Assembly: GCA_964394645.1 (NCBI GenBank)
Contig: CAYMYC010000001.1
Location: 274,052-338,051 of the forward strand
Direction: 5' to 3'
DNA length: 64,000 nucleotides
From: an uncultured Gammaproteobacteria bacterium
GTDB lineage: Bacteria; Patescibacteriota; Microgenomatia; Levybacterales; GWA1-39-11
Notes under the pieces: generated by a model
Database searches by the model: none
Told to the model about the DNA's origin: nothing
Seen by the model: only the letters and a program-made list of their open reading frames with translations
Position numbers and translations under genes: made by a program
In this document: positions 9,314 to 40,674 of the stretch, piece by piece
How positions within the stretch are numbered: the first letter of the stretch is position 1
Layout: each line of letters starts with the position of its first letter

Positions 9314-9577
9314 TTCCCAGAATTCGTATTCTGAACCATCCTTAAAGTTTTTATCGTCAATCATTCTTTTAACCCTGACTAAACCTTTTTGCTCTAAGGA
9401 ATCAGTAACGTTTGTAGTCATTGATCTTGCTTCAGTTCCAGATATTTTTTCCCAAACACTAAAGACTTTCTGGTCGTCTTTCCAAACTCCCAGAAATACT
9501 TGAGTATTATCGCCGGTCTTTGGTTGAGGATGAATCTCAATCCTATATTCTTTATAATTTTCTTCTTTCAATTTCAC
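9302..9577 (-). CDS. hypothetical small protein (last gene of a five-gene minus-strand operon)
   Basis: 91-aa ORF, 10 nt downstream of the preceding minus-strand gene. Confidence 0.35.
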   Translation of the reverse strand: MKLKEENYKEYRIEIHPQPKTGDNTQVFLGVWKDDQKVFSVWEKISGTEARSMTTNVTDSLEQKGLVRVKRMIDDKNFKDGSEYEFWESAN

Positions 9578-9587
9578 ACACCTCCTT

Positions 9588-10505: not shown

Positions 10506-10512
10506 ATCGTAT

Positions 10513-11124: not shown

Positions 11125-11130
11125 AATAAT

Positions 11131-11703
11131 TCATATACCCCAAATATACTTTAATCTCTTCTCAAAATTTGTTCTTAAAACCGTATTCAAAGGATCTTTC
11201 AAATCTTTTACGTATTGATTGAAATGACTTTGTATATCTTCTACTAATTTGCCTGGACATATTTTTATGTTTCCTTTCACTATTCCAATTCCGGATGAAA
11301 TCGAACAATCTAATATTATCTTTGTTCCTGTTAAACCAACGTGATACATACCACAACGAGCTTGTTCATAAACTACCTTTGTTAAAGCATCCCTATCTTT
11401 ATGACTCTTAAATTTTGGATATACCCATTTCAAACCTTCTGTAAAGAATGCTTCTGATTTTCCGGCCTTGTCATAACCATCCTTAAATTTTTGAATATTT
11501 TCAAAATATGCCATCATTATTGATAGCATGGCAAAGTCGGAATGACCAACTTTAGTTTTTATCTCTTTTAATACATCTAAAGTCCATCCCTGAATTTGTT
11601 CTTCAAAAAGCCTAATTTTATGCTTTTCAAAATCCCAATCATCCCATTTTGTAGGAAAGTCACTTCGCTTTGATTTTGATGAAATACTCAAATTGTTTTT
11701 CAT
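11131..11703 (-). CDS. hypothetical protein (operon gene 2)
   Basis: 190-aa ORF, 6 nt downstream of gene 1 and overlapping it by 4 nt at its own 5' end. Confidence 0.4.
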   Translation of the reverse strand: MKNNLSISSKSKRSDFPTKWDDWDFEKHKIRLFEEQIQGWTLDVLKEIKTKVGHSDFAMLSIMMAYFENIQKFKDGYDKAGKSEAFFTEGLKWVYPKFKSHKDRDALTKVVYEQARCGMYHVGLTGTKIILDCSISSGIGIVKGNIKICPGKLVEDIQSHFNQYVKDLKDPLNTVLRTNFEKRLKYIWGI

Positions 11704-23240: not shown

Positions 23241-24572
23241 ATGGATTACAATACAAAGCCAGAGATACCTCTCGAATACTGCCTGTATGCCCGCAAATCA
23301 AGCGAATCTGATGAAAGGCAAACAATGTCAATTGACTCTCAGATCGAGGAGATGATGGCACTTGCCAAGCGGGACAAACTAAAGATAAAAGAAGTCAAAA
23401 AGGAGAGTCACTCAGCAAAGTCCTCAGGCACCCGCCCTGTATTTATGGAGCTTCTCCAAGAGGTAAGACAGAAGAAATTTAATGGAATTTTAACCTGGGC
23501 ACCAGATAGGTTAAGTAGGAATGCCGGAGACTTGGGATCAGTAGTTGATCTCATGGACCAGGGAAAACTCGTTAAGATTCAGACGTATTCTCAAAGTTTT
23601 TCAAACAGTCCGAATGAAAAGTTTTTGCTGATGATTTTATGCTCCCAAGCAAAGCTCGAAAATGATAATAAAGGATTGAATGTCCAGAGAGGAATGAGAG
23701 CAAAATGTCTGATGGGCTGGCGTCCCAGTATTGCTCCTGTTGGATATATTAATCAAGCTGGTGATCCGGCAACAACAGAATTGATAATTGTTGATCCTGA
23801 GCGAGAAAACTTTGTAAGACAAATGTTTGACAGAATGGCAAATCAAGGACAATCAGGAAGAACAATAAAGATGTGGCTTGATCGCATTGGTTTTGAAACA
23901 AGAGGAGGTAAAAGACTAGCACTGAGCAAAGTCTATGCAACTCTTAAAAATCCTTTCTACTACGGAGAGTTTGAATTTCCTGTTGGAAGTGGTACTTGGT
24001 ATAAAGGAAAGCATAAACCATTAATAACTAAAGAATTATTTGATAAAACGCAACTTCATCTTCAAATACAACCCGACAAAGGATACAAGAATAAACTATT
24101 TCCATTCAAGAAGATGTTCAAATGCGGAAAATGTGGCGGAGGCATAACGGCTGAAGAAAAATACAGAAAACTTCTAAATGGCAGAGTTGTAAAACATATC
24201 TACTATCATTGTGGAAGATCCCGTGATTTTGAATGTGATGAACCATACATTACAGAAGCAGACCTTGTTAAACAACTAATTGCAAAGATTGATGTTATTA
24301 GATTTAACTCATCAGGAATCACAAGAAAAATACAGGAGGATATTGAGCGATACCACAGACTTAAAACCCAGGTTCTTCATCAGGAATTTATAGATGGATA
24401 TTTACAAGAATTTAATAGAATTCCTGAAAATGGAAATGACAAGAATGAAATGATGAAAAACTATCTATTACATATTCTAAAAATAGGAACAGCAGAAGAG
24501 CGACTAGAAGCACTCTCTTTTATTAAAACAAAATTCATTCTATCTCAAAGAGAAATAATAATAGAAAAATAA
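23241..24572 (+). CDS. large serine recombinase
   Basis: N-terminal YCLYARKSSESDERQTMSIDSQ (catalytic Ser in a resolvase-like context), a recombinase domain and a zinc ribbon (CGKCGGG ... YYHCGRSRDFEC). Confidence 0.75.
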   Translation: MDYNTKPEIPLEYCLYARKSSESDERQTMSIDSQIEEMMALAKRDKLKIKEVKKESHSAKSSGTRPVFMELLQEVRQKKFNGILTWAPDRLSRNAGDLGSVVDLMDQGKLVKIQTYSQSFSNSPNEKFLLMILCSQAKLENDNKGLNVQRGMRAKCLMGWRPSIAPVGYINQAGDPATTELIIVDPERENFVRQMFDRMANQGQSGRTIKMWLDRIGFETRGGKRLALSKVYATLKNPFYYGEFEFPVGSGTWYKGKHKPLITKELFDKTQLHLQIQPDKGYKNKLFPFKKMFKCGKCGGGITAEEKYRKLLNGRVVKHIYYHCGRSRDFECDEPYITEADLVKQLIAKIDVIRFNSSGITRKIQEDIERYHRLKTQVLHQEFIDGYLQEFNRIPENGNDKNEMMKNYLLHILKIGTAEERLEALSFIKTKFILSQREIIIEK

Positions 24573-24834
24573 CCGCAACTTCTCCGATAGGTGTTTTTCT
24601 CGTGGGCTAAATGGTCTTTTTTGAGGCCTAAAAATTACTATTACAGGCTCTTTAAGCGATTATAGAACGACTTTGATTTAATTTAGCAAGCCTTATCAAC
24701 CCAAACGTAGATACCCAACGGGTCTGGTAGGAATACTATAAGATATGTGACCCGAGAGATACACTGTTCGAATCAAGTTTAGCCTTTTGGGACAGGTTAT
24801 TGAAGGCATTTCAATCTCTAACTGAACCTCAAAA

Positions 24835-25029
24835 CTAAAGCATCTTAATTTTTAAGACATCAAAAATCTTCTTTAACTTATCGTAGGAGGTATTAATTTC
24901 TCCCCGTTCAATCCTTGCATAGTACGTAACGTCCATTCCTGTTTTTTCTGCAACTTCAGCTTGCGTAAGACCAAGTTTTTCCCTTGCACCGCTTAATTTT
25001 TCTGCCAGTTCTTTATTCTTTGTAGACAT
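24835..25029 (-). CDS. XRE-family HTH regulator
   Basis: LTQAEVAEKTGMDVTYYARIERGEINTSYDKLKKIFDVL. Confidence 0.7.
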   Translation of the reverse strand: MSTKNKELAEKLSGAREKLGLTQAEVAEKTGMDVTYYARIERGEINTSYDKLKKIFDVLKIKML

Positions 25030-25112
25030 ATATGTACAGTATTATATCAGTTCTAAAAGAAAAAAAATAATAGCCTCAAGCTAATATCAAGAACCTGCAT
25101 AGTAATAAATTA

Positions 25113-25259
25113 CTTGCTAGTCTTTTTTTCTCTGATAAGTATCCTCATTAAATTTAAAAAATGTGTTGCCAACCTCGCTGTTTCTTCATCGGTCAATATG
25201 ATCCCGTAGTTCTTAAGATAAAGTTTCTTAAATTTATCAAAATATTGTTCTTTAGTCAT
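25113..25259 (-). CDS. small hypothetical protein (49 aa) coupled to the upstream XRE gene
   Basis: ATG lies 2 nt after the XRE stop (TAGTTATG on the minus strand); below the ORF-track cutoff. Confidence 0.25.
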
Positions 25260-25261
25260 AA

Positions 25262-25480
25262 CTATTCATCTAAAAGATCACTTGATGTAATCCCTAAGCC
25301 TTTTACTAATATGTAAAGTAAGCCAATTGTTACACGAGCTTTTCCGGTTTCAATTTTGCCAATATAACTTCTGCTAAGATTCGTAACAACGGATACTTCC
25401 ATTTGTGTTAGATTTTTCTGTAATCGAATCTTTTTTAAATTACGACCAATTCTGGCATTCCCTTCAAAACTGTTCACCAT
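25262..25480 (-). CDS. XRE-family HTH regulator
   Basis: LTQMEVSVVTNLSRSYIGKIETGKARVTIGLLYILVKGL. Confidence 0.65.
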   Translation of the reverse strand: MVNSFEGNARIGRNLKKIRLQKNLTQMEVSVVTNLSRSYIGKIETGKARVTIGLLYILVKGLGITSSDLLDE

Positions 25481-25554
25481 ATTGCTAATTTAGCACAAAG
25501 TTTTTGACCGGGGGCGCTAGTTGGTTGTAGTGGTGCTACTTTTGAGGCAGAATA

Positions 25555-26370
25555 TCATTTTCCCAAAGAATTTCTTACAGTTCTGTAGATATTTCCAAGC
25601 TCGCGAACATATAGTGAATCATTTTCAAGGATAAATTTTCTGCAGTTTTCCGGATCATCTTCGTATAAAGACTTAACACTGTTTGTTAATACAATAATAT
25701 CTTGACTAACATAATTTGAGGCCTGACTATCATAGAATGATACATAAAAAAATAACATGCAGAAAAGGGCAAGATTAAAAATAAAGAGTGGAGGGAACGT
25801 GAATAATAGAATTGCTAGTAAAATTATAATTTCTATTTCAATTCTTAGTATATGAGATTTATAGCCTACCAAATCGGTATATGCTGTAACATATATTGCT
25901 CCGATAGGATTTTTCTCTTTCTCAAGCTTAAGTTCTTTAATTTTTTTGACTGTATCCTGAATACACTTCCTATTTTTTGCAATTAATTTAAAGCTCCACG
26001 CCTTCTTTCTTAAGAACCAGTAAGTATCGGACTGTACAAAAATGATAAATGTAATAAAACTAACGAACAAAATTTCTAAAAAATAAAGATAAAATTCATA
26101 TTTGCTAGAAGAACGAAAGACAGTAAATAAGAATACTGATATTAATAGAACAAAGAGAAGCTTCTTGTTGATTGGAGAAAATGATAAAAGATACAGAGCC
26201 CTATTTTTGCAAGAAATAAAGTCACCTATAATTTCAGTAAATAAATTCTTAATTTTTCGTATCACAAATAAATTATACTCCAGCTCACAAGGCCTGTCCC
26301 ATATGATAAAAGTGACAACAATGATAATAATTGATTGTTCTTTTAAATTAGAGCTCGTAAACCCTGCCAA
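25555..26370 (-). CDS. polytopic membrane hypothetical protein
   Basis: Several hydrophobic helices; no enzymatic motif. Confidence 0.35.
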   Translation of the reverse strand: MAGFTSSNLKEQSIIIIVVTFIIWDRPCELEYNLFVIRKIKNLFTEIIGDFISCKNRALYLLSFSPINKKLLFVLLISVFLFTVFRSSSKYEFYLYFLEILFVSFITFIIFVQSDTYWFLRKKAWSFKLIAKNRKCIQDTVKKIKELKLEKEKNPIGAIYVTAYTDLVGYKSHILRIEIEIIILLAILLFTFPPLFIFNLALFCMLFFYVSFYDSQASNYVSQDIIVLTNSVKSLYEDDPENCRKFILENDSLYVRELGNIYRTVRNSLGK

Positions 26371-26401
26371 ACAGTGCTACAATTTGTAGACTTAAAATAG
26401 T

Positions 26402-27979
26402 ATGAGTCAAATTTCACCTCAATTAAGAGCAACATTATCAGGATTTAACGGAGGATCTAATGGAAGAAAAGCAAAGTCTCCTGAAGAATTTTTCGAGCGA
26501 TGGCTAGTATTCAAAACCAAAAAAGCGAAAATGCCCGGCGTTAAGAAAGTTATAGATGAAGCAATAGGGAAAAAGGGTGAGGTATTGCAAATAATTGCAG
26601 AGTTTTTTCAAAATAGGCAAAATGGCACAGGCAACTTTCAGGATAAATACATACAAAAAGCTAATAAACCTTCATCAAAATTTAGACTTAACGAAAAACA
26701 AATTGATCTTTCAGAAATAACATTGAGTCCGGATCAAGAAAAAATTCTCGGCTTACTTCAGACTTCAAAAACTCCCATATTTCTCACCGGAAAGGCAGGG
26801 ACTGGTAAATCTTTACTCTTACAATATTACCGGCAAAAATCCAACAAAAACATCGTAGTATGTGCTCCAACCGGAGTTGCTGCGCTTAATATTGGAGGAC
26901 AAACTATTCATTCACTTTTTAAAATACCACCTGAACTTATCAGAAAGGATAGCTTAAAGGTCGAAAAAAGAGCCGCAAAATTACTAAAGCATGTAGACGT
27001 TTTAATTATTGATGAGATATCAATGGTTAGACCAGACCTCATGGATGCTATTGACTATGTACTTAGAAAGGCAAGAAGTAGTTCGATTCCTTTCGGAGGT
27101 GTACAAATTATTATGTTCGGGGATCTTTTCCAGCTCCCTCCGGTTATACAGAAAGAAGTATCCGACTATTTCGAGCAAAATTATGGAGGAAATTTCTTTT
27201 TCAATGCAGATGTTTGGAAGAATATAAAATTTGATATCCGAGAGCTGACGACTGTATTCCGTCAAAAAGATGAGGACTTCAAAAGTGTGCTTAATGCGGT
27301 ACGGGAGGGAACAATAACAGATGAACAAATAATGGTTCTTAATAAAAGGGCTGGTGCTGAAATTCCTTCCGAAGGGGTAATTACCTTAACAACAACAAAT
27401 GTATCAGCTAAAAAAATCAACGAAACCAAGCTTAGTCTTTTGAAAGAAAAGGGGTATGAATACAAAGCTGAAATATCCGGGAATCTTGAGAAATCTGCAT
27501 ATCCAACAGAAGAAATATTGCAATTAAAGAAAGGCGCACAGGTTATGTTACTGAGAAACGACAAAGATAAACGCTGGGTAAATGGCACCTTGGGATATAT
27601 AGATTCTTTGAAGAATGACGAAATAAAAGTAAATATAGATGGGAATATTTATTCCGTTCCAAGGGAAACTTGGAAAAAAATCAAATATATCTTTAATGAA
27701 ACAACAAAAACACTTGAGGAAAAAGTGGTGAGCTCATTTACGCAATTTCCATTACGGCTAGCTTGGGCTATAACAATACATAAATCACAAGGTCAGACCT
27801 ATAATTCAGTAGCTATCGATATGGGGTTCGGTGCCTTTACCTATGGACAAACGTATGTAGGGCTTAGCCGGTGCAAGTCTATAGATGGTTTATACCTAAA
27901 AAGAAAAATATCGAGGGAAGATATTATTGTAGAACCTAAAATTATTAATTTTATGAAGAATATTAATATTGATAAGTAG
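26402..27979 (+). CDS. Pif1/RecD-family (AAA_30-type) 5'-3' DNA helicase
   Basis: Walker A LTGKAGTGKS, Walker B VLIIDEISMV, motif III-like MFGDLFQLPPV, and a C-terminal SH3-like/UvrD_C_2-like end (WAITIHKSQGQTY ... YVGLSRCKS). Confidence 0.7.
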   Translation: MSQISPQLRATLSGFNGGSNGRKAKSPEEFFERWLVFKTKKAKMPGVKKVIDEAIGKKGEVLQIIAEFFQNRQNGTGNFQDKYIQKANKPSSKFRLNEKQIDLSEITLSPDQEKILGLLQTSKTPIFLTGKAGTGKSLLLQYYRQKSNKNIVVCAPTGVAALNIGGQTIHSLFKIPPELIRKDSLKVEKRAAKLLKHVDVLIIDEISMVRPDLMDAIDYVLRKARSSSIPFGGVQIIMFGDLFQLPPVIQKEVSDYFEQNYGGNFFFNADVWKNIKFDIRELTTVFRQKDEDFKSVLNAVREGTITDEQIMVLNKRAGAEIPSEGVITLTTTNVSAKKINETKLSLLKEKGYEYKAEISGNLEKSAYPTEEILQLKKGAQVMLLRNDKDKRWVNGTLGYIDSLKNDEIKVNIDGNIYSVPRETWKKIKYIFNETTKTLEEKVVSSFTQFPLRLAWAITIHKSQGQTYNSVAIDMGFGAFTYGQTYVGLSRCKSIDGLYLKRKISREDIIVEPKIINFMKNINIDK

Positions 27980-28005
27980 GCCTGCTCTTTCTGGTAAATT
28001 AACAA

Positions 28006-28761
28006 TCATTTTTCAAATTCTTTAACAGCACTTCGATATTTGCAAAAATCACAATCCTCACCTGATTCAGGAAGAACGTCGCTATGAAGGCATTTAATTG
28101 CGTTTGACACTGTTCCCTCAACCCATTCTGTATTTCCTGTATAAGGAATTAGTTTTATTTCAAATTCTAATTTTCCGTCAAATGCCTCTTTGTCAGTATT
28201 GCCATTGCAGTAAACAAAATAACCAGTATCTGAAACCTTAAAACCATTTTTTCTAAATAACCATTGATATATCTCCATTTGCCGTTTGTATCCATCCTGC
28301 CATTCTGCATCAAGGGTTACTTCTCCATCTTTAGCGGTAGCCTTATAATCTACTATTATCAACTCTCCATTTTCTTCACGCCAAACATCATCAACTCCTC
28401 CGGTGACCATGATGGAGGTACCATCAATCGGAACAGTAATCCCACGTCTCAAGCTATCTCTCCATTCGTCAATTTTCTCATGAGCAAATGGAATGGCATT
28501 AATTCCATATTTCTCACAAAGAGGGTGTCGTGTGCCATTGGAGCGATGAATATCAAATTCTTTTTTTAGTAGTGCATCAACTGCAGAATTTAGTGAAAAT
28601 GGATATCCAGGAGGCTGAGCAACACCTAGTCTTCTATCTAAGTAAAAACATCTAGGACATTTAATAAAACTGTCTATCTTACTCCTACTTAAACGAAATA
28701 ACTCTGCAGAACTCGGATCGTAGATATTTCTTTTTCGGTTAGGATGGTAATAATTTGACAT
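28006..28761 (-). CDS. RecB/Cas4-family PD-(D/E)xK nuclease with four-Cys cluster
   Basis: Motif II D in GGVDDVW, motif III IVDYKAT, a QxxxY-like EIYQWLF, and N-terminal CPRC plus C-terminal CDFC cysteine pairs reminiscent of the Cas4/AddB Fe-S arrangement. Confidence 0.7.
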   Translation of the reverse strand: MSNYYHPNRKRNIYDPSSAELFRLSRSKIDSFIKCPRCFYLDRRLGVAQPPGYPFSLNSAVDALLKKEFDIHRSNGTRHPLCEKYGINAIPFAHEKIDEWRDSLRRGITVPIDGTSIMVTGGVDDVWREENGELIIVDYKATAKDGEVTLDAEWQDGYKRQMEIYQWLFRKNGFKVSDTGYFVYCNGNTDKEAFDGKLEFEIKLIPYTGNTEWVEGTVSNAIKCLHSDVLPESGEDCDFCKYRSAVKEFEK

Positions 28762-28763
28762 TT

Positions 28764-31400
28764 TTATGTTTTTAGGAATGTAATAATTTCATTTAAGTCT
28801 TCAGCCTTTAATGGGTTTTGGGTGGAATTTTGTGTGGAATGGCTCCCTCTATTACTAAGCTTATTCCAGTAGCCGTTGAGTTTATCTATCTTTGTTTTAT
28901 CAATATTAATATTTTTAATTCCGTCCCAATTGATATTATTTCCTCTAACCCTGTTACGCAATAAATCCTGTTTATTCAATATCTTCTCGTCAATGTAGTA
29001 CTCTATCGCAGATTTCAAAAGACTAGAAACTACATTTACAGAATAAGATCCCTTCATTTCTCTCTCTGCTTTTTCAATAAAATAAGTACACGATTCATTC
29101 TGACTCTCTAAAATTCTTCCTGTCCTATCTTTAGACTCCCTTTCGACTGTATAGGTATGTACGTGGTGGCCTGCAGTGACACATCCACGCTCGATATAAT
29201 TTTTGCAAACATGATGGGTTCGATTACCATGATCATCCTTCAAATCACCGCACCAAGTTACTAATGAGTTATAAAAAAGCTTATCATGGGTAAATATTAT
29301 TATTTGTCTTGTTGCCGAAACTTGGAGCAATCTTTTTGCTAATAAATCAGACACTTCATGATCTACGCTTGTAACTGGATCATCGAACACTACTGGATTG
29401 CTCCCACCCTGACTTTCAATCTCTCCCAAAAAAAGAGCTAAGCATACCGCCTTTTGTTCGCCCGTACTTAGAATGTCCTCAACATCATTACCTAGAATCT
29501 TTAGACATGTACGAACAGTTCCTTTACCCGCCCCAGTTTTTTCCAGCGTAACCTCCACATCTTTACCTAAGGCTTTTAATTCTTCCTCAAATGATTTTCT
29601 AATAGAGTCTGTTAGAAGTTCATCATGAGCTTTTGATCCCAGAACTGTTATACCAGTTGTCAAAATAGTGCCATTTACATTCTCATATCCTTTTGCCTTT
29701 TTCTTTCCCTCAAAGTATTTTTCTATCTTTTCCTTCAATTTTGAAACGTTTTGCTTATCTTGGAGTTTCTCTATTTCTTCATTGAGCTTATTTATTCTTT
29801 CTTGCTTCTGAGATTCAGATTGCTCCAAGCCATCGACTCTTTCCTGTCTATCAGTAGTCATCTTTGATAGTTGTGTATCGATGTCGTACAGTTCGAGGTT
29901 ATATTGATTGCTTACCTGACTTCTCTTATTCAGGGATTCAACAAGGGCCTCTTTTTGTTTTTTCGCTTCTGCAAGAACCCGACTAACTACCTCACTCAGA
30001 CTTTTATTCTGTTCTATTTCTTGTTCAGAAAGTATTTTTTGTAAATTGTCAGAAGCATTGAAGTCGAATACGATCTTTTCAAGAGAACCTAGCAGTATAT
30101 TAATCCCATTTTCTGCTTTCCTGAAATCTGCCTGAGACTGATCGTTGAGATATTCAGAATATGCCTTTGTAAGCTTTAGGGCATCTTCTCCTAATGGCTG
30201 ATGGCAATAAACACACTTCTCATCTTTATTAAAAGTATTTTGATCAACGGCAACTCCATACTTTTCGGCTGCCTCCACAAAAGACTGCCATTCATCTGAT
30301 TCTTGAGACGGAACACTTTTCAACACTTCAAATTGTTTTGCTCTTTCATCTCTGATTTTCTTTTTGCTTATATAATTGGGAATTGATGCAGAGACCTGTC
30401 CTGTTAATGACTCAAGAGAAGATTTAAGTTTTACTAAATGATTTTTTAATGCGTCGATCTCGGTTTTCTCCTGATTTAGTAATTTTTTACTGTCATCTAC
30501 ATTCTTCTTTTCCAATTCTTGCTTCAATTGAATCCACTGTCCCAATTTTGCAATTTCTTCTTTGGAAATCGATAAATAATCTGCAAGTACTTTGCTATTG
30601 TCATCCGATAAAGAATCCTCTTGAAGGATCCATTTAAGATCCTGCGAGTGCAAATCATCTATCAATGGTTGCATATCGGGGCATAGATTTTCTTGTTCTC
30701 TTTGAAGTCCTTCGAGCCTTTTTTTTAGATCGTCTATTGTTGATGCAATAATTTGAAAAAGGTTTAACCCTAGCGGTTCTATGTTTACAGAATTTTCTCT
30801 TTCATGCAAAAATACTGGCAAGTAATCGGAGTCGAAAACTTTGATTCTATTAAATGGTATGATTCCACGGCTGTGCTTATCTTGCCATTTATAGCCTTGA
30901 GTAACTCCACCAAGAGAATATTCAACATCAACCTCTAATCCATCTTCTTGCCCATGTATATTATTCAAAATGCTTCTGTGTTGTATACCTCCAGCAACTT
31001 CGTGAAGTATTCTAAAGTAACCGCTCTTACCAGTTCCGTTTAATCCAAAAACAACAGTACAAGCAGGACTGAAAGTAATCGACTGATTTGGAATTAAAGC
31101 ATTAACACCATTTACGTGTGTTATTTTCCTTAGAATCAACTGTTGTGGATTTGTGCTTAGAGGTGGGTTTTGTTCTTCTGCTCGTGTGGCTGTGTCTTCC
31201 AAAGATTGAGTTTGATCGCCTGAATTTAGGTTATTCTCTTGAAGTAACAGGGTGAAAATCGAGTCTTTGTCGGAGTCTGTTAGTTTTCCATTAGTGTCAA
31301 TACACCTCTGGATTAGCGTACCTAGCCAAGTAGGAGTTGTACTTCTATTTTTATATTCGAGCAGGTAATCGGTTGCATGAGTTTTATTTGTTGCGTCCAT
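28764..31400 (-). CDS. ABC/SMC-like ATPase with long coiled coil, CxxC zinc hook and His-rich C-terminal domain (RloC/PrrC-like architecture)
   Basis: Walker A FGLNGTGKSG, ~450 aa of coiled coil containing CVYCHQPLGE, ABC signature LSTGEQKAV, Walker B PVVFDDP, H-loop IIFTHD, then a ~190-aa His-rich tail (HGNRTHH ... AGHHVH). The stop is 3 nt before the nuclease gene. Confidence 0.55.
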   Translation of the reverse strand: MDATNKTHATDYLLEYKNRSTTPTWLGTLIQRCIDTNGKLTDSDKDSIFTLLLQENNLNSGDQTQSLEDTATRAEEQNPPLSTNPQQLILRKITHVNGVNALIPNQSITFSPACTVVFGLNGTGKSGYFRILHEVAGGIQHRSILNNIHGQEDGLEVDVEYSLGGVTQGYKWQDKHSRGIIPFNRIKVFDSDYLPVFLHERENSVNIEPLGLNLFQIIASTIDDLKKRLEGLQREQENLCPDMQPLIDDLHSQDLKWILQEDSLSDDNSKVLADYLSISKEEIAKLGQWIQLKQELEKKNVDDSKKLLNQEKTEIDALKNHLVKLKSSLESLTGQVSASIPNYISKKKIRDERAKQFEVLKSVPSQESDEWQSFVEAAEKYGVAVDQNTFNKDEKCVYCHQPLGEDALKLTKAYSEYLNDQSQADFRKAENGINILLGSLEKIVFDFNASDNLQKILSEQEIEQNKSLSEVVSRVLAEAKKQKEALVESLNKRSQVSNQYNLELYDIDTQLSKMTTDRQERVDGLEQSESQKQERINKLNEEIEKLQDKQNVSKLKEKIEKYFEGKKKAKGYENVNGTILTTGITVLGSKAHDELLTDSIRKSFEEELKALGKDVEVTLEKTGAGKGTVRTCLKILGNDVEDILSTGEQKAVCLALFLGEIESQGGSNPVVFDDPVTSVDHEVSDLLAKRLLQVSATRQIIIFTHDKLFYNSLVTWCGDLKDDHGNRTHHVCKNYIERGCVTAGHHVHTYTVERESKDRTGRILESQNESCTYFIEKAEREMKGSYSVNVVSSLLKSAIEYYIDEKILNKQDLLRNRVRGNNINWDGIKNINIDKTKIDKLNGYWNKLSNRGSHSTQNSTQNPLKAEDLNEIITFLKT

Positions 31401-31472
31401 GTAATTGTATCATATAAACCTCTTCTATTAAACCATCGGACTAGTTTAAGCTAATTCGATATTTCTCATTGT

Positions 31473-32576
31473 TTATATTCCAGACTTAGTTCTGTTGTCT
31501 TGTTTACAAAGCATCTGACAATTTTCTGCAATAGTCTTTCCTCCCTCGTGCCAAGGAGTAATATGATCTCCTTCCATTTCGTCTAATTCAAAGTGGTTTT
31601 TACAAAAGAAACAAATGCCATTTTGTCTTTCGTATGCCTCGCGTTTCATCTTGTCTGTAAAGGCTCGAATTGAGAGATATTTCTCTTGGTGTGTCAGAAC
31701 ATATGGATAAATACCTGACTTTTTCGTAACGTCTTCATCCTGCATCATAACTTTTGTTTCTGTCTCCAGTTTTTCTGGATCAAGAGCCTCGTTTCTGAAC
31801 TGATTGTATAGTTCGCCCCAGTTCACACTGGCCATTTCTTTTCTATAGTTGGGGAAAGCCTTTCGTACCCAAACGATTACATCTTGAAAGTAGTTCCATA
31901 ATTCATCAGCATTTTCATCATGCTGGTGTTTGGCCATGTAATCTTCAATTGCCCCATTATTTATCCACGAGAGTGCAGTTTCTAAGTATTCTTGTCTTAT
32001 GGGTGATCCACTAAGTAGTGCACCACCATCATTAGCCAAAAGGTAGGCAACACAGTTTGTTTTACTGAACTTGAGCTTTGCATCCGAGAGCCAAGGGCCA
32101 GTGTATACAGCGTTTCGAAGCTCTTGATCTGTTAATTTTTCACCTGCGATATTGATAATCCTAAACCAGTCCAAGCGTTCTTTATCCGTTCCCTCACAGA
32201 AATAGATCATTAGTTCATAATCCAAAATCTGGTTTTGCTCCTCAAGAGTTAAGTTATGAAACATTGCTAATCTGCCATTAAAGTCTATGGAAAAATCACC
32301 ATTTACATATTGTGCAAGGCTGATAGTACGTTGTTGGCCATCAAGAACCTCATAGTCACCATCTTCACGAACTACCCAGTACATAACATTAAGAGGAAAT
32401 CCATTTTTGACAGTATCTATAACTGCATCCCGTTGTTTGTCTTTGTAGACAAACTCTCGCTGGTATTTAGGACGAATATCAAGTTTTCCGCCATAACCTA
32501 TCACGCCCTCTTCAGCGTTATCTTTATATTCTTTTACTACCTCACGTACTGGTATTCTGCGTAAATCAATCTTCAT
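31473..32576 (-). CDS. DUF262 (ParB-like, DGQQR motif) domain fused to an HNH nuclease; GmrSD-like type IV restriction-type protein
   Basis: N-terminal DGQQR motif (VLDGQQRTISL) and C-terminal HNH (CFFCKNHF ... GDHITPWHEGG ... NCQMLCKQDN). Confidence 0.65.
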   Translation of the reverse strand: MKIDLRRIPVREVVKEYKDNAEEGVIGYGGKLDIRPKYQREFVYKDKQRDAVIDTVKNGFPLNVMYWVVREDGDYEVLDGQQRTISLAQYVNGDFSIDFNGRLAMFHNLTLEEQNQILDYELMIYFCEGTDKERLDWFRIINIAGEKLTDQELRNAVYTGPWLSDAKLKFSKTNCVAYLLANDGGALLSGSPIRQEYLETALSWINNGAIEDYMAKHQHDENADELWNYFQDVIVWVRKAFPNYRKEMASVNWGELYNQFRNEALDPEKLETETKVMMQDEDVTKKSGIYPYVLTHQEKYLSIRAFTDKMKREAYERQNGICFFCKNHFELDEMEGDHITPWHEGGKTIAENCQMLCKQDNRTKSGI

Positions 32577-32577
32577 A

Positions 32578-33621
32578 TCAATTTTTAACTTTTTTATTTC
32601 TGATTAAAATACGTGCATATGTCTCTTTACCATCTATAGTAAATCTTTTTCCATAATTTGGGTTATCATCCACATAACGATCAATACCGATTATTTCAAA
32701 CTGTTCAGGGTTATACTTGTCAACAAAAGTAATTGGTACCCCCATTATACCGTCATAGTCAAAAGGAATATCCATATAACGGTTTACATTTATTGCATTG
32801 TAGTTATCATAATTGGAATATTCTTCTGGTGTATATTTTCTATATAAAGTCACTTCTTCGTGACGCTTTGTAGTTTCTAAATTGGTAAACCATAATATTC
32901 GCCCCATGCTAAAATACTTTATTCCGTCCACAACCCTTTTCCTTGACTCGGTAGGAATATCATAATCCATCGGAACTTGAAACCATTTAGTACCGCCATT
33001 GTCATACCCAAGCCATAATTTGTTGTCTTTGATCAGTTTAAATATTTCTTTATATGTAATGGCGTTTTGATCGCCTAGAATAAGAAACTTTTTATTGTGT
33101 TCAATAAGTTGTGCAACATACTCACGAAAAAGCGAAAACGGAGGATTAGTAACAACAATGTCCGCCTCTTTTAATAGCTCGACACACTCATTGCTTCTAA
33201 AATCTCCATTTTCTTTAAGGGGTTGAGAAACATTAGCATCGCGTTTTAATAACCACTCAACATCTGCTAAGTCAATTGCTCCGTCAGTATTTTCATCTGG
33301 CACCTCGTTAATCTCAATCTTGAACGGCTCTTTTCCTTTCGGTTTTAAGCCCTCCATATCTAAAAGGGAAAGCTGTTTTCCAGTAATCGGCGAACCACTG
33401 TAGCTAGTGGTAATCAGTTTCTTTAATCCTAAGGCGTTGAAGTTGGAGGCAAAATATTTAAAAAAGTTACTCTCAAAAGGATCATCACAATTGCAATACA
33501 CTATTTTCTCACGAAATTGCTGCTTGTAGTGCTTCAGCTCTTTTTCAATATCGGTTAGTTGAGTATAAAACTCATCCTTTTTGGCCTTACTAGCTTTATG
33601 GAAGTTCGTATTTAATGACAT
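32578..33621 (-). CDS. N6-adenine DNA methyltransferase (EcoRI-methylase-like family)
   Basis: Motif IV VVTNPPF, an N-terminal KDEFYT region, and no detectable nuclease partner other than the adjacent DUF262-HNH gene; 1 nt from the downstream gene. Confidence 0.55.
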   Translation of the reverse strand: MSLNTNFHKASKAKKDEFYTQLTDIEKELKHYKQQFREKIVYCNCDDPFESNFFKYFASNFNALGLKKLITTSYSGSPITGKQLSLLDMEGLKPKGKEPFKIEINEVPDENTDGAIDLADVEWLLKRDANVSQPLKENGDFRSNECVELLKEADIVVTNPPFSLFREYVAQLIEHNKKFLILGDQNAITYKEIFKLIKDNKLWLGYDNGGTKWFQVPMDYDIPTESRKRVVDGIKYFSMGRILWFTNLETTKRHEEVTLYRKYTPEEYSNYDNYNAINVNRYMDIPFDYDGIMGVPITFVDKYNPEQFEIIGIDRYVDDNPNYGKRFTIDGKETYARILIRNKKVKN

Positions 33622-33713
33622 AGAATCATATTTATTAAAGTTATTTAAATTTCGAACTGTTACTTAATTATTCTACCACTGATGAGGCTATTATTGCACG
33701 GTTATTTAATGTT

Positions 33714-34001
33714 ATGCTTATTTATATGATGTATCCACCTATTTATTATGTTTATATAGCTGAATGTTCAGATAAAACATATTATGTTGGTCAAACAGCT
33801 GATATTAGTGAAAGAGAAAAAGAGCATAATGGGCTAGGTAAATTTCCTGGAGCAAAATACACAGAATCTAGAAGGCCTGTAAGGATTGTACATATAGAGC
33901 CTTATCATACAAGATCATACGCAATGCAAAGAGAGAAAGAACTAAAAAAACTGTCCCATGAGCAGAAGTACGACCTAGTTAATTGCTTAGCAATATACTG
34001 A
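33714..34001 (+). CDS. GIY-YIG nuclease domain protein (small, Slx1/UPF0213-like)
   Basis: YYVYIAECSDKTYYVGQTADISEREKEHN ... matches the GIY-YIG motifs with conserved Arg/Glu; 95 aa. Confidence 0.65.
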   Translation: MLIYMMYPPIYYVYIAECSDKTYYVGQTADISEREKEHNGLGKFPGAKYTESRRPVRIVHIEPYHTRSYAMQREKELKKLSHEQKYDLVNCLAIY

Positions 34002-34031
34002 ATTTTCTATATATTTTAATAATCTCTAATT

Positions 34032-34065
34032 AAGGGTTGCGCCCCTCTTTTGACAAGAGTAAAAG
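34032..34065. repeat. conserved ~35-bp hairpin repeat, copy 1 (AAGGGTTGCGCCCCTCTTTTGACAAGAGTAAAAG)
   Basis: Shares the core CCCCTCTTTTGRCAAGRGT and an AAGGG...CCCCT stem with copies at 35358 and 35909; lies downstream of the GIY-YIG gene. Confidence 0.6.
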
Positions 34066-34137
34066 AATTAAAAAATGTTTTTAGAGATACTTAGAAGATA
34101 CTTGTCATATACTTAACAAGTATGTTAGAATTAAAAC

Positions 34138-34437
34138 ATGGAAGATCAAAAAATCATAAATCCGCAAAAAGTTTACAACGTCAACGAGGCAGCAAAAGTC
34201 CTTGATATTAACGAACAAACCTTGCTTGATTATGTCCGCACTGGCAAAATTATTGGCAAAAAGATAGGAGAATGGAAAATACTAGGACAATCACTTATTA
34301 ATTTTCTCACTGCAGAGCCAAACGAGATAGAAAGACCAGACGAAGCAGACTTCTATGACCCCACATTGGGACAAAAAGGCTACGATATTACAAAAGGCGG
34401 CTTTGTTGATCCAGCAAAAACCCCTTGGGGAAAATAA
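34138..34437 (+). CDS. excisionase/MerR-like HTH DNA-binding protein
   Basis: VYNVNEAAKVLDINEQTLLDYVRTGKIIGKKIG resembles an Xis/MerR-type HTH. Confidence 0.4.
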   Translation: MEDQKIINPQKVYNVNEAAKVLDINEQTLLDYVRTGKIIGKKIGEWKILGQSLINFLTAEPNEIERPDEADFYDPTLGQKGYDITKGGFVDPAKTPWGK

Positions 34438-34440
34438 AGA

Positions 34441-34902
34441 ATGAAAGATCGGGCATCTTATCTAGGTACAGTATCTCTTAATTTCTTGCAACTCCCTGGC
34501 ACTATCGGCAATTGGCAATCGTACGAGACAGAAGATATCTTTGCAACAAATTTTATAAATGTTCCTCATGAACACCTTTATACAATGGGGTCTGGCATAA
34601 ATCCCTTACAAGGCACAGCTTTAGCTTCTCTTGCAACAATTCCAAATTTTCAACTTCCAACACAAACCCAATGGTATATAGCTGGACGTACAGTAGTTAG
34701 GTGGGGTGGAACTTCAGATCCAACAGAAGTAGACATTGATCACTATGGATTTACCCCAGTCTTTAATAAAGGAGTCGCCGTTGTGTGGAAAGCTCCTAAA
34801 TCTGAACCTCATCATTTGTCACAAATTCCAGACTTAATAAATACCGTACCGTCTAATTTGGTAGAATTAGTTGAGGCAATAAGAAAAGGAGAATTTAAAT
34901 AG
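34441..34902 (+). CDS. hypothetical protein
   Basis: Intact ORF starting 4 nt after the HTH gene. Confidence 0.3.
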   Translation: MKDRASYLGTVSLNFLQLPGTIGNWQSYETEDIFATNFINVPHEHLYTMGSGINPLQGTALASLATIPNFQLPTQTQWYIAGRTVVRWGGTSDPTEVDIDHYGFTPVFNKGVAVVWKAPKSEPHHLSQIPDLINTVPSNLVELVEAIRKGEFK

Positions 34903-34903
34903 C

Positions 34904-35326
34904 TTAGGCTGGTTTTGTTCCTATCCCTTGAGAAAAGCGGAGCAAATATCCGTCAGGGTCTTGAACCAGAATTTGTCTGCATCCATGCATTACATCGTTC
35001 ACTCTGTACCAGCTGTCTTCCAACTCTCTTCTCAGAGGATACCCACTGTTTTTCAGAGATTTTGCAAGTTTTTCCACGTCTTTTGTATTAATTTGAAAGT
35101 TAATTCCACGGCCTAATGGATATTCAAATTCCCCTACCTTATACTCATCATCTTCATTTGGATCAAGCTGCTGGATCATAATCTCACTCTCTTCAAAAGA
35201 CAAAAATGCGAACTTAGGGTTTTCCCTTGTGTATTCGACCTTAAAACCTAATACATCTTCATAAAAATGAAGGCTCTTCTCAAAATCAGAGACATATAGT
35301 TCCGGAAGAATAGTATTAAATTTCAC
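34904..35326 (-). CDS. VOC-family protein (glyoxalase/bleomycin-resistance fold)
   Basis: LYVSDFEKSLHFYEDVLGFK is a typical VOC first beta-alpha-beta-beta-beta module; 140 aa. Confidence 0.65.
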   Translation of the reverse strand: MKFNTILPELYVSDFEKSLHFYEDVLGFKVEYTRENPKFAFLSFEESEIMIQQLDPNEDDEYKVGEFEYPLGRGINFQINTKDVEKLAKSLKNSGYPLRRELEDSWYRVNDVMHGCRQILVQDPDGYLLRFSQGIGTKPA

Positions 35327-35357
35327 AATAAAATTATACCAAATTTAAGCATTCTAT

Positions 35358-35395
35358 TAAGGGGCTTGCACCCCTCTTTTGGCAAGGGTAAAAAT
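35358..35395. repeat. conserved hairpin repeat, copy 2 (AAGGGGCTTGCACCCCTCTTTTGGCAAGGGTAAAAA)
   Basis: Same core as copy 1; lies between the VOC and GNAT genes. Confidence 0.6.
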
Positions 35396-35410
35396 AACCA
35401 GAGATAAATG

Positions 35411-35899
35411 TTACCTATCTAAGTTTAAAGTAGCTTCCTTGCGATCTACTAGTTTAAATTCGACTTTTTCGTGAAGTTTTATCGAATTAGGGTTGTCTAG
35501 ATTAATTAGAGCCTGTATCTTTTTTATTCCTTTTTCCCTAGCTTCATTAATCAATTTTTTGTACAACAGTTGTCCAATGCCTTCTCTCTGATGGATTGGG
35601 TTAATTCCAACGTAACGAATATATAAAGTACCACCAAATGGAAGCGTTTCATAAGCAAGAATAAAACCAACAATTTTCTCTCCTTGCTCTGCTACAAAAC
35701 AATATCCAGTATCTATATTGGTTTGGAATTCTGATTTTCGGGAAACAAGATGAGATTCTTGCTCCTCCTGGCTCATATCATCAAACTTTGATCCCAAGTA
35801 CTGTCTTTGTGTCAGAATGTCGACACTGTGAACCTGCACGTAGTCATCAAGCTTCATCTGTCGAATTGAAATTTGATCCATAGCATAATTATAAGGCAT
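35411..35899 (-). CDS. GNAT-family N-acetyltransferase
   Basis: Acetyl-CoA-binding motif HQREGIGQLLYKKLINEA (Q/RxxGxG/A) and the family size (162 aa). Confidence 0.75.
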   Translation of the reverse strand: MPYNYAMDQISIRQMKLDDYVQVHSVDILTQRQYLGSKFDDMSQEEQESHLVSRKSEFQTNIDTGYCFVAEQGEKIVGFILAYETLPFGGTLYIRYVGINPIHQREGIGQLLYKKLINEAREKGIKKIQALINLDNPNSIKLHEKVEFKLVDRKEATLNLDR

Positions 35900-35908
35900 C
35901 GGTCAATT

Positions 35909-35945
35909 AAAGGGCTGACGCCCCTCTTTTGACAAGGGTTTCCGT
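35909..35945. repeat. conserved hairpin repeat, copy 3 (AAAGGGCTGACGCCCCTCTTTTGACAAGGGTTTCC)
   Basis: Same core; immediately upstream of the GNAT gene start on the minus strand. Confidence 0.6.
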
Positions 35946-36059
35946 TTTACTCCAATAAACTGCGCTTCGCTTGCCCTTGTAAAATTCACCCCGCTTTTTA
36001 AATTAACTTTCTATCTGAAAGCATGAGCATGCTTTCAGAAAAATAATTTTCAAGAAAGC

Positions 36060-36413
36060 GTGAGGAAGGGGGTGAAATATATGGAGAATTTAGTAACAGT
36101 TGACTATTCAAAATTCGGGTACAGAGAGTTAGATATTGCCGGAAAACTTTTAGCTATCTACTCTCAAGGTGGGGTTGACTTTTTGGAAGATGGAATAACA
36201 GTAAATTTCAATATGAACAGTGGCTATGTATTTTTGTCTGATTCAAACTATAACGTTGGGGTTTTAGCCGATGGAGAAACTCAAATAGTACAGTTTTTCT
36301 CATGCATGGAATGCGGTTATGAGGGTACTCAAGATGATGCCTTGATGGACGAAAAAGACTTCGTAACTTATGAGGGGTATTGTTCTGAAGAATGTTATTC
36401 TAAGAATATGTGA
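36060..36413 (+). CDS. hypothetical protein
   Basis: Intact ORF with a C-terminal Cys/Glu-rich stretch (CMECGYEG ... CSEEC). Confidence 0.3.
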   Translation: MRKGVKYMENLVTVDYSKFGYRELDIAGKLLAIYSQGGVDFLEDGITVNFNMNSGYVFLSDSNYNVGVLADGETQIVQFFSCMECGYEGTQDDALMDEKDFVTYEGYCSEECYSKNM

Positions 36414-36436
36414 TAGCAAATACTGCCCATTTGCTT

Positions 36437-37213
36437 TTACTTTACCCTTTTCCAAATATCGGAGGAGTCGTTTCGGATTATCTCTTTTGTTGTTAAGAAT
36501 AGAGATAGATCACTATTCTCTTTTTCAAGCTTTGCCTTTGCATACTCGAAAATATGTGTTTGCATGTTTTGGGAAGGTAGAACGAAAAGGATTTGTGGAA
36601 ACGGTGCATTATTGGTGTTTTCCTTCCACTTAGTATCTTGAGAATACACTATATACTGCTTTACTCTTTTTCTTAAAATGAAAGCCGGAGTATACGGATC
36701 AAAGATATTTAAAAGATACCTTCTAGTTTTATTACCGGTTTTAAACGCTATATATGCGCAAAGCTCAGTATCGGGAAAATATTCGTATCCGATTAAATCC
36801 GTTTCGGTAAAAAATTGCAGGGTTTCTTCTTTGTCCTTTTTTGAAAGAAAGAAAAGATACATATCTACAACAAACAGTTTGTGATTGATGAATTTATTCC
36901 CCCGTTTGTGTTCTTTATATATTCTTGAGTTAAAAGCATCGGTATCAAAATTTTTTTCATTTTTTAAAATATTTCTTGCAAGGGGTTTTAGAAAATATAT
37001 TGCGGGCTTGTTTCCTTCTTCAAACGATTTTCTTGAATAGTTAGTACCAATATATTTTTTGTCCTTTAGATCTTTAAGCCATTCTTTTATTCTGTGTGGA
37101 TCTTTGTGATTGAATAGTTTTTGAAATTGTAGAGTTGTTAAGAATCGAAACCTGTATAGATAGATTATTATTTCTTTTTGCTTTAGTGTATATGGTGAAT
37201 TTGTGTATTTCAT
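36437..37213 (-). CDS. replication-relaxation family protein
   Basis: The N-terminus LKQKEIIIYLYRFRFLTTLQFQKLF is the hallmark of the replication-relaxation (winged-helix) family that accompanies T4CP/FtsK-like ATPases on Gram-positive-type mobile elements. Confidence 0.5.
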   Translation of the reverse strand: MKYTNSPYTLKQKEIIIYLYRFRFLTTLQFQKLFNHKDPHRIKEWLKDLKDKKYIGTNYSRKSFEEGNKPAIYFLKPLARNILKNEKNFDTDAFNSRIYKEHKRGNKFINHKLFVVDMYLFFLSKKDKEETLQFFTETDLIGYEYFPDTELCAYIAFKTGNKTRRYLLNIFDPYTPAFILRKRVKQYIVYSQDTKWKENTNNAPFPQILFVLPSQNMQTHIFEYAKAKLEKENSDLSLFLTTKEIIRNDSSDIWKRVK

Positions 37214-37313
37214 TAATGGTTCTCTATATAAATATATAGATATAAAGGAGCAGAAAATATTTAATACTTCGCTTCAAAATTATTCAATTTCTGTACCCAT
37301 CCGCAGGTACATC

Positions 37314-40148: not shown

Positions 40149-40311
40149 ATATTTTGGGCAGCAGTAAAGAAAGTGTATCAGAGTGTATCAAAACGTAATC
40201 GAGAATACAATATTTAATAATTTCTCTAGGCTCTGCGAGAAACCAAAGGCTGCCTCTTTTAAACAGAGCTTAGAAAAATTATTTTTACCTCAATTTAGCC
40301 TCAATTACCCC

Positions 40312-40340
40312 TTGACAACTATACATATTTGTATATATAC
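40312..40340 (+). promoter_or_regulatory. sigma70-like promoter candidate (TTGACA-N16-TATATA)
   Basis: -35 TTGACA at 40312-40317 and an AT-rich -10 about 16-17 nt downstream; precedes the ATG at 40384. Confidence 0.3.
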
Positions 40341-40383
40341 TCTATACAGATATGTATATATAAAAGAGTTGGTATTTGTAACT

Positions 40384-40674
40384 ATGGAAGGCTTAGAAAG
40401 ACAACAAATGGTAGGTGAATCAGATAATAGACAAGGGATTTACGAAGAATTAAATCAATACTTCAATGACCAAAACAAAGAACAAAAAGCAATTTTAGAA
40501 GCACGTGAAATTTTAGGTGACTGTACAGAAAGTCTGACGGATGAAGAAATATATAACCTAGCAAGTGAGGCACAATATCTGGTTGATTGCTGGTTTGAAG
40601 AATTTGAAAAAAGTATATTTTTTGGGAAAACCTTAAATGATTTATTGGGACTTAACAGAAATGAATACAAATAA
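40384..40674 (+). CDS. small acidic hypothetical protein upstream of serine recombinase #3
   Basis: ATG at 40384 follows the promoter-like element. The ORF track's longer form (40183) begins upstream of that promoter, so the shorter start is preferred. Confidence 0.35.
   Translation: MEGLERQQMVGESDNRQGIYEELNQYFNDQNKEQKAILEAREILGDCTESLTDEEIYNLASEAQYLVDCWFEEFEKSIFFGKTLNDLLGLNRNEYK

Follow-up and report, generated by a model that had tools for sequence, protein, structure and literature searches.

Four co-directional genes in the window

The window analysed here, a stretch of 64,000 nucleotides (nt) from contig CAYMYC010000001.1 whose coordinates are counted from its first letter, carries on its minus strand a cluster of four consecutive genes. 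They encode an EcoRI-family methylase, a DUF262-HNH endonuclease, an ATP-binding cassette (ABC) ATPase with a zinc hook and a Cas4-like nuclease; the identity of these proteins and the extent to which they belong together are the subject of this work. In the direction in which the genes are read, the locus comprises:

32578-33621, minus strand: N6-adenine DNA methyltransferase of the EcoRI family, 347 amino acids (aa), M subunit of a type II restriction-modification (R-M) cassette (Pfam and PADLOC)
31473-32576, minus strand: DUF262 (ParB-like, DGQQR) plus HNH endonuclease, 367 aa, putative type II restriction endonuclease (Pfam and PADLOC)
31401-31472, minus strand: 72-nt spacer between the endonuclease and ATPase genes
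28764-31400, minus strand: ABC ATPase, 878 aa, PADLOC candidate family PDC-S06
28006-28761, minus strand: Cas4/RecB-like PD-(D/E)xK nuclease, 251 aa, with four cysteines (CPRC…CDFC) (Pfam PDDEXK_1)

The open reading frames are long and their profile matches very strong, and they are therefore regarded as genuine genes rather than chance occurrences. A preliminary description of the locus, made from the letters alone, had called four co-directional genes at these positions, as found here. Its domain assignments hold in a Pfam search, and the motifs it named (DGQQR, HNH, Walker A, CxxC and both cysteine pairs) are all present in the translations. Along the minus strand, the intergenic gaps measure 1 nt (methylase to endonuclease), 72 nt (endonuclease to ATPase) and 2 nt (ATPase to Cas4-like gene); the first two agree with the earlier figures, while the last had been put at 3 nt. 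A scan of the segment 27800-34200 for promoters and terminators returned counts that match those of shuffled sequence and thus does not settle the operon structure. A sigma-70-like site in the spacer (31431-31404) belongs to a class of sites no commoner here than in shuffled sequence.

A type II R-M cassette of EcoRI-family methylase and DUF262-HNH endonuclease

Judged by its profile matches, the methylase plus DUF262-HNH pair is a complete, self-contained type II R-M cassette. The methylase aligns with Pfam EcoRI_methylase over positions 1-345 of 345 (E=1.4e-138) and with the PADLOC MTase_II model PDLC03297 (E=3.8e-126). The second protein combines GmrSD_N (DUF262; E=5.5e-18) with HNH (E=7e-11) in Pfam, and its residues 1-365 match the PADLOC REase_II model PDLC03418 (profile length 372, E=1.6e-143). 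This full-length match to a type II endonuclease overturns the earlier suggestion of a GmrSD-like type IV layout placed behind a methylase gene. What the protein has in common with GmrSD is confined to the N-terminal DUF262 domain with its DGQQR motif. The C-terminal domain of GmrSD is DUF1524, whereas that of the locus protein is a classical HNH domain (PF01844/PF14279) that gave no DUF1524 match. Moreover, the locus protein is only 367 aa long and paired with a methylase, as against the 828-830 aa of the long GmrSD_N proteins in loci L085 and L090. Identity with GmrSD was rejected on these grounds.

The same pair is found alone elsewhere. A tblastn search identified 44 full-length relatives of the endonuclease on plasmids, the best of them (52-62% identity) in Macrococcoides, Mammaliicoccus, Chryseobacterium, Sulfitobacter, Aeromonas, Variovorax, Gordonia and others, and most are annotated next to an "adenine-specific methyltransferase EcoRI family protein". 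Plasmids carrying the R-M pair alone occur in Alphaproteobacteria, Bacillota, Bacteroidota and Actinomycetota. On two plasmids that were inspected, the two genes overlap by 4 nt and stand by themselves among mobilisation and resistance genes; the ATPase and the Cas4-like gene are absent from both. Since the pair recurs alone across phyla, the DUF262-HNH protein is best viewed as the cognate endonuclease of a widespread two-gene cassette. The arrangement resembles that of other type II cassettes with an EcoRI-family methylase, in which a full-length methylase gene and a nearly abutting, co-directional endonuclease gene are conserved across phyla. The difference from EcoRI lies in the nuclease: the EcoRI endonuclease is itself a PD-(D/E)xK enzyme, while the one encoded here is built from DUF262 and HNH. 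In such a cassette, the methylase would mark host DNA and the HNH enzyme would cut incoming DNA lacking the mark.

The pair is also present in loci L022, L032, L046 and L130. In L130 (883-6780), the genes of a same-family pair are separated by an inserted 558-aa gene and are followed downstream by a Cas4-like gene, without an ATPase.

The ATPase belongs to candidate family PDC-S06

The 878-aa ATPase matches the PADLOC PDC-S06 model PDLC04892 (E=1.2e-200, residues 6-877 on positions 2-837 of 843) and, with E-values of about 1e-92 to 1e-98, three other models of PDC-S06. By sequence, it is a member of this PADLOC family of candidate single-gene defence ATPases with no difference in kind. Models exist for three of the four parts of the locus (MTase_II, REase_II and PDC-S06); the preliminary description had not recognised the four-gene combination as a described system, but the parts themselves are not new to the catalogue. 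A database search with the ATPase returned 71 relatives, mostly of 840-900 aa, many of which carry Pfam AAA_13. Pfam matches of the locus protein comprise a weak one to AAA_23 and one to Cytochrom_C (E=7e-5), the latter spurious because the hook and the histidine that follows it read CxxCH and so mimic a haem-binding site. PADLOC also reports weak matches to LmuB and mad3, that to LmuB being restricted to residues 104-130 (27 residues around the P-loop, E=5e-4). Searches of PDB sequences, either with the ATPase or with a profile of its C-terminal domain, yielded marginal ABC or chance matches only.

The domain order is an N-terminal helical domain, an SMC/Rad50-type head, a coiled coil with a zinc hook and a C-terminal domain of HEPN fold. 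Motif conservation was scored in an alignment of 33 homologues. The main features are:

31023-31046, minus strand: Walker A (P-loop) GLNGTGKS, residues 119-126; G119, N121, K125 and S126 invariant in the 33 homologues
30204-30215, minus strand: CxxC zinc hook C396-V-Y-C399 at the tip of the coiled coil; C396 and C399 invariant in the 33 homologues
29286-29468, minus strand: ABC signature LSTGEQK, Walker B FDDP, D-loop and switch histidine, residues 645-705
29103-29255, minus strand: beta-rich module, residues 716-766, H730-x-C732…C741…H747, a possible metal site (alignment and models)
28767-29090, minus strand: helical domain of HEPN fold, residues 771-878, predicted RNase effector

Within residues 645-705, E648, D673, D674, D680 and H705 are invariant, and S645, G647 and Q649 nearly so (at least 90%). 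The ATPase has a Rad50/SbcC-like fold with a coiled-coil insert of about 370 residues, and matches to Rad50/SMC proteins take in segments of this coiled coil. In the structure model, the hook motif occupies the loop that joins two antiparallel arms of long helices (302-362/369-384 and 405-441).

Residues 1-85 (31146-31400) form a conserved three-helix domain with the consensus HAKDYLLEY…PxWLxxLIQKxIxTNG and no family match; a linker of low model confidence joins it to the ABC head. This domain could serve as a contact to the R-M enzyme or to DNA.

Distant relatives at 24% identity occur on at least 14 staphylococcal plasmids. One of these, on Staphylococcus epidermidis plasmid pC099MK1 (L186, 3962-6280), stops after an R-x3-E-x3-EE helix, without the His-bearing half of the C-terminal domain, and adjoins Tn552-like transposition genes rather than R-M genes. 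It was considered as a stand-in for canonical RloC and rejected, as it ends inside the C-terminal domain and gives no significant profile match. A search of viral contigs yielded seven loci with a distant ATPase and four with a Cas4-like gene; with so few loci, neither gene appears to be mainly phage-borne.

A HEPN-fold domain at the C terminus of the ATPase

In the alignment, the last 167 residues of the ATPase consist of the small His/Cys beta module followed by helices. In the model, the helices adopt the four-helix HEPN fold, and they carry the motif K796-x3-E800-x3-D804-E805 … S849-x-R851-x-S853-H854. S849 and H854 are invariant among relatives, and E800, D804 and E805 nearly so. At position 796, nearly all aligned sequences have either Lys, as in the nearer relatives, or Arg, as in the more distant.

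RloC and PrrC are ABC ATPases fused to HEPN-class anticodon nucleases, whose catalytic triad Arg-X3-Glu-X36-52-His often has a Ser before the His (PMC2610378; PMC3710099). Set against this pattern, the domain reads K796-X3-E800-X53-S853-H854, that is, with Lys for the triad Arg and a spacing one residue beyond the published range. With RloC, an anticodon nuclease that excises the wobble nucleotide and was studied in Geobacillus kaustophilus, the ATPase shares a common plan in which an ABC head split by a CxxC-hooked coiled coil is followed by a C-terminal domain of HEPN class. It differs from RloC by the extra His/Cys beta module before the HEPN helices and by the extra N-terminal domain of about 85 aa. 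A profile of the C-terminal domain, searched against 1.84 billion representatives, retrieved 164 clusters in all, which fall into a long class (about 830-900 aa) and a short class (about 515-526 aa). The short proteins are ABC ATPases without a coiled coil (Pfam), and this duality parallels that between RloC, which has the coiled coil, and PrrC, which has none. One short relative of about 515 aa has as its sole neighbour a 1383-aa P-loop protein. The C-terminal domain of the L046 ATPase is homologous to that of the locus (hhalign probability 99%), and the same comparison indicates that the L046/P0051 subgroup lacks the His/Cys beta module. DARNA, known from a preprint, was also tried as a match and rejected: it is a HEPN tRNase but not of ABC type.

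The ATPase family is recurrently linked to restriction

A scan of one genome per species gave 396 relatives of the ATPase, and 80 loci were analysed, 66 of which have at least 3 kb of flanking sequence on some side. R-M genes were sought with 17 seed proteins and jackhmmer, making the counts a lower bound. An R-M gene lies within 5 kb of the ATPase gene in at least 27 of the 80 loci and is always co-directional with it. A Pfam census of two genes on either side points the same way, with both flanks dominated by R-M parts: upstream are Methylase_S (10), N6_Mtase (7), HsdM_N (5), RE_AlwI (3), methylases of C5, D12, N4-N6 and Eco57I type, and HpaII; downstream are HSDR_N (5), ResIII (5) and others. 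No separate effector gene is conserved beside the ATPase family in this census.

The R-M systems involved are of types I, II and III. In L018, L021 and L034 the order is hsdM-(DUF1016)-hsdS-ATPase-hsdR, and the gaps that flank the ATPase gene there measure 13-96 nt. Published prrC genes likewise lie between hsdS and hsdR (PMC3710099), and in this respect the three loci are like the PrrC/EcoprrI type Ic arrangement. The locus ATPase differs from PrrC in being 878 aa long, hooked and placed behind a type II system, whereas PrrC is about 400 aa, has neither coiled coil nor hook and is reportedly always linked to type Ic. Among nearer relatives, the 80%-identical ATPase of L083 has a type III Mod/Res pair upstream, the 62%-identical one of L086 has a PLD-helicase and an MmeI-like methylase upstream, and a 67%-identical relative stands before a long GmrSD_N protein. 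The EcoRI-family R-M pair of the window itself adjoins ATPases of 31-38% identity in two gene orders (L022/L032 versus L046). In L046 the endonuclease is 79% identical to that of the window and the methylase 65%, while the ATPase is only 38% identical; the cassette and the ATPase have therefore had separate histories.

Altogether, the link between R-M systems and the ATPase family is recurrent and independent of the type of R-M system, as expected of a guard or back-up module. It is also far more frequent than reported for RloC, for which 8 of 72 cases are R-M-linked and type I or III loci now and then contain the gene (PMC2610378).

A putative latent RNase behind the restriction enzymes

Taking domain architecture and neighbourhood together, the ATPase is most likely a restriction-linked ABC-HEPN suicide RNase that backs up R-M as the first line of defence. 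Precedents exist in PrrC, a latent RNase guarded by an R-M enzyme, which its partner is reported to silence and a phage anti-restriction peptide to release, and in RloC, which is reportedly governed by its zinc hook and a DNA-dependent ATPase and activated by DNA breaks (PMC2610378; PMC3710099). Mutants of the RloC triad are no longer toxic, whereas mutants of its hook show increased anticodon-nuclease activity (PMC2610378). By analogy, the Rad50-like head and the zinc-hooked coiled coil would keep the C-terminal HEPN RNase domain latent. The state of the ATPase would be switched by failed restriction, or by DNA ends or DNA damage that its Rad50-like part detects; the switch would expose the HEPN site, tRNA or another RNA would be cut and translation would stop. 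The outcome would be abortive infection, a second line behind R-M. The RNase activity, its trigger and a physical coupling to the R-M enzymes are what we infer from the gene identities, folds, conserved motifs and neighbourhood statistics.

Several observations weigh against this interpretation. The canonical HEPN motif Rx4-6H is not found as such in the C-terminal domain, the locus copy being R851-x2-H854; the position of the Arg shifts among relatives, some of which have R-x6-H; and the loop that bears the His is modelled with low confidence. The profile of the domain does not reach beyond its own ABC-ATPase family, and canonical RloC or PrrC was not recognised among the hits sampled, for which reason the family is placed beside RloC, as its sister, rather than within it. 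In favour of a tie to RloC, relatives of the ATPase match AAA_13, the Pfam family of RloC proteins from a 2008 study, above the gathering score over profile positions of about 19-600 of 713 (head plus coiled coil). These matches stop before the C-terminal 115 or so profile positions; for the nuclease domain, the case for a common origin with RloC therefore depends on the fold and on one short motif. The ATPase of the locus gives no AAA_13 match at E≤1. With the seeds used, no R-M gene was detected in most of the 80 ATPase loci. In the searchable literature PDC-S06 appears as a PADLOC prediction only, and no functional test was found there. Finally, in the only close relative the ATPase and Cas4-like genes form one block (see below), which fits a functional pair equally well.

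Some of these points would also suit a different role for the ATPase, that of a DNA-directed helper of the endonuclease which might sense DNA ends or loops like LmuB of Lamassu or JetC of Wadjet; its HEPN fold would then be non-catalytic, used in binding or regulation, and would cut no RNA. The missing Rx4-6H motif and the variable Arg are what one would expect in that case, some relatives (such as the Staphylococcus plasmid protein) end inside the C-terminal domain, and there are the weak matches to LmuB and mad3. However, the invariance of S849 and H854, the near invariance of E800, D804 and E805 and the presence of Lys or Arg at position 796 argue for an active site rather than a scaffold. 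The LmuB match involves just the 27-residue P-loop region, and the family has no conserved separate effector gene at its side. A purely DNA-directed role thus seems unlikely to us.

The widespread Cas4-like nuclease is probably only a neighbour

The protein encoded downstream of the ATPase matches Pfam PDDEXK_1 (E=2.8e-13) and has the core D…DYK…QxxxY, with D138 and K140 as presumed catalytic residues and with four cysteines at the two ends (CPRC, CDFC). The PD-(D/E)xK core and the four cysteines in the terminal regions are shared with Cas4/AddB-type nucleases of the RecB family. It is not a true Cas4: it scores 37.8 bits against TIGR00372, for which the curated cut-off is 65, and its neighbours are not cas genes. 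It differs from Cas4 also in being a stand-alone gene in thousands of contigs of the candidate phyla radiation (CPR), with no cas or CRISPR context near the locus; searches for direct repeats in 20000-44000 and for tandem repeats in the whole window revealed no CRISPR-like repeat array. Its relatives number more than 8000. The best 120 of them are 75-83% identical and about 251 aa long, and those bearing names among these 120 belong to Daviesbacteria and Parcubacteria.

In 60 metagenome loci, the upstream neighbours of Cas4-like genes include type I/III restriction genes (ResIII, N6_Mtase), Eco57I and MmeI types, GmrSD_N, Shedu SduA, Schlafen-type helicase, AAA_15/AAA_21 (OLD-type ATPase) and reverse transcriptase. 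Downstream neighbours are mostly unrelated genes and not rich in defence functions. The gaps flanking the gene have a median of about 17-20 nt on both sides, and roughly every second neighbour on the same strand is no more than 20 nt away. Spacing being equally tight on the two sides, the 2-nt gap to the ATPase gene is uninformative as to coupling. No conserved DNA, attachment site or shared junction was detected upstream of the start codon. The Cas4-like gene may be an edge marker of a defence-island hotspot or a shared accessory nuclease.

A gene for a PIF1-family helicase (26402-27979, plus strand) converges on the Cas4-like gene. In 3 of 85 other loci (L113, L143 and L152), PIF1 relatives are likewise found no further than about 2 kb from the Cas4-like gene, and a UvrD helicase gene is found directly upstream of it in L088/L089. 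A helicase-nuclease partnership for the Cas4-like protein is possible.

The preliminary description had read the ATPase and the nuclease as sensor and effector and had made their co-occurrence in other genomes the test of this proposal. At the family level the two genes are unlinked: none of the 80 other ATPase loci has a Cas4-like relative at E<1e-4, and none of the 85 other Cas4-like loci has the ATPase. The idea that the ATPase is tied to restriction is borne out by its recurrent embedding in R-M loci; the effector pairing in the manner of Lamassu or SbcCD finds no support. The locus does share with Rad50-Mre11/SbcCD and Lamassu a hooked SMC/Rad50-type head and a nuclease gene directly downstream. 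It differs in that a HEPN-fold domain is fused to the ATPase; Rad50, SbcC and LmuB are not known to have one. SbcCD/Mre11-Rad50 was rejected because the neighbour is a PD-(D/E)xK protein, not an Mre11/SbcD phosphoesterase, and the pairing is absent in 80 of 80 related loci. Lamassu was rejected because the LmuB match is limited to the P-loop and PADLOC finds no LmuA or LmuC.

The strongest case for a Rad50-Mre11/SbcCD-like module, in which the hooked ATPase would sense DNA ends or foreign DNA and recruit the nuclease while the R-M system is exchangeable, comes from locus L083. Window positions 31415-28034 and L083 positions 7986-11370 are one contiguous block of about 3.4 kb with 79.8% nucleotide identity. 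The block begins at 31415, in the spacer, and contains exactly the ATPase and Cas4-like genes, which are separated by 2 nt in both; upstream of it lies the type II cassette in the window and an unrelated type III system in L083. The Rad50/SbcC-like fold of the ATPase agrees with such a module as well. Set against this, the pair is known from two lineages only (the window with L081/L082, which carry proteins identical to its own, and L083/L084). In addition to the 0 of 80 and 0 of 85 counts, the Cas4-like gene accompanies none of the 62-67% identical ATPase relatives examined, and the two families differ in size, the ATPase search yielding 71 proteins and the Cas4-like search at least 8000. The Cas4-like protein of L083, at 81% identity, is not the closest, since copies elsewhere reach 83%; tight spacing is the norm in these genomes; and the ATPase has an effector-like domain of its own. 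We consider such a module improbable. An equally doubtful variant would have the hooked ATPase and the Cas4-like gene as a mobile two-gene unit behind interchangeable R-M systems, with the Cas4-like protein as a more broadly shared accessory (nuclease arm or DNA-end processor) for many CPR defence cassettes. The nuclease is probably a widespread neighbour and not a required or dedicated partner of the ATPase.

That the four genes constitute a new type of defence system in which every component is obligatory is very improbable and largely refuted by the neighbourhood data. Co-directional genes with short gaps, the methylase-endonuclease-ATPase order seen again in L046 and the same-family R-M pair upstream of the Cas4-like gene in L130 speak for it. 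Against it, beyond the identical-protein contigs L081/L082 no locus has the complete set, the R-M pair stands on its own elsewhere, the ATPase occurs with type I, II, III or other R-M systems or, in many loci, with none detected, and the 79% and 38% identities of endonuclease and ATPase in L046 bespeak separate histories. On balance, and with reasonable though not high confidence, we regard the locus as composite defence cargo, made up of a two-gene R-M cassette, a restriction-linked ABC-HEPN ATPase and a neighbouring nuclease, and not as one four-part machine.

The surrounding mobile element

Flanked by two large serine recombinase genes, the cluster appears to belong to an integrative mobilisable element that has a tRNA gene as its insertion site. 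The following features were identified from Pfam matches, gene tables and a tRNA search:

23241-42253, strand not applicable: integrative mobile element, approximate limits
23241-24572 and 40637-42253: large serine recombinases
26402-27979, plus strand: PIF1 helicase
36437-37213: Replic_Relax protein
37314-40148: type IV coupling-protein-like ATPase
42145-42216: tRNA-Glu, on the opposite strand, overlapping the 3' end of the second recombinase gene

No convincing att-like direct repeats were found flanking the element, and for this reason its limits are approximate. The backbone of L083 is related to that of the window element and carries TrbC and VirB4/TraG-like genes; a homologue of the backbone gene unk153 (34441-34902 in the window) lies on the opposite side of the shared block in L083. 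The defence cluster is probably the cargo of an integrative and probably mobilisable element.

Divergent from the methylase gene, positions 33714-34001 (plus strand) encode a GIY-YIG protein of 95 aa that has no further domain; the next gene is of HTH_17 (excisionase-like) type. A 21-nt motif, CGCCCCTCTTTTGACAAGAGT, is present in three intergenic copies (34040-34060, 35369-35389 and 35919-35939) with 86-100% identity; a short hairpin, CTCTT…AAGAG, within it would suit a role as terminator or operator. The host is probably a member of the Patescibacteria, to judge by the taxonomy of the closest relatives, the low GC content and the presence of genes for membrane glycosyltransferases of the PMT/YfhO type.

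Implications

An apparently new four-gene system resolves into three recognisable parts. What the present analysis adds to PDC-S06 is the HEPN assignment and the statistics on its embedding among R-M genes, and the family thereby gains a concrete, testable mechanism: an ABC-zinc-hook-HEPN protein that would back up restriction, as PrrC and RloC do, and whose R-M partners may be of type I, II or III. This mechanism hypothesis, together with the Cas4-like gene at the edges of defence islands, offers better leads than the locus itself. The Cas4-like gene, which is extremely conserved in Patescibacteria-type contigs and there borders on variable defence islands, may merit separate study.

In Patescibacteria, CRISPR systems are scarce and R-M is a mainstay of defence. 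If the proposed role of the ATPase is correct, the principle of R-M plus a latent RNase would extend to a further protein family and to the Patescibacteria.

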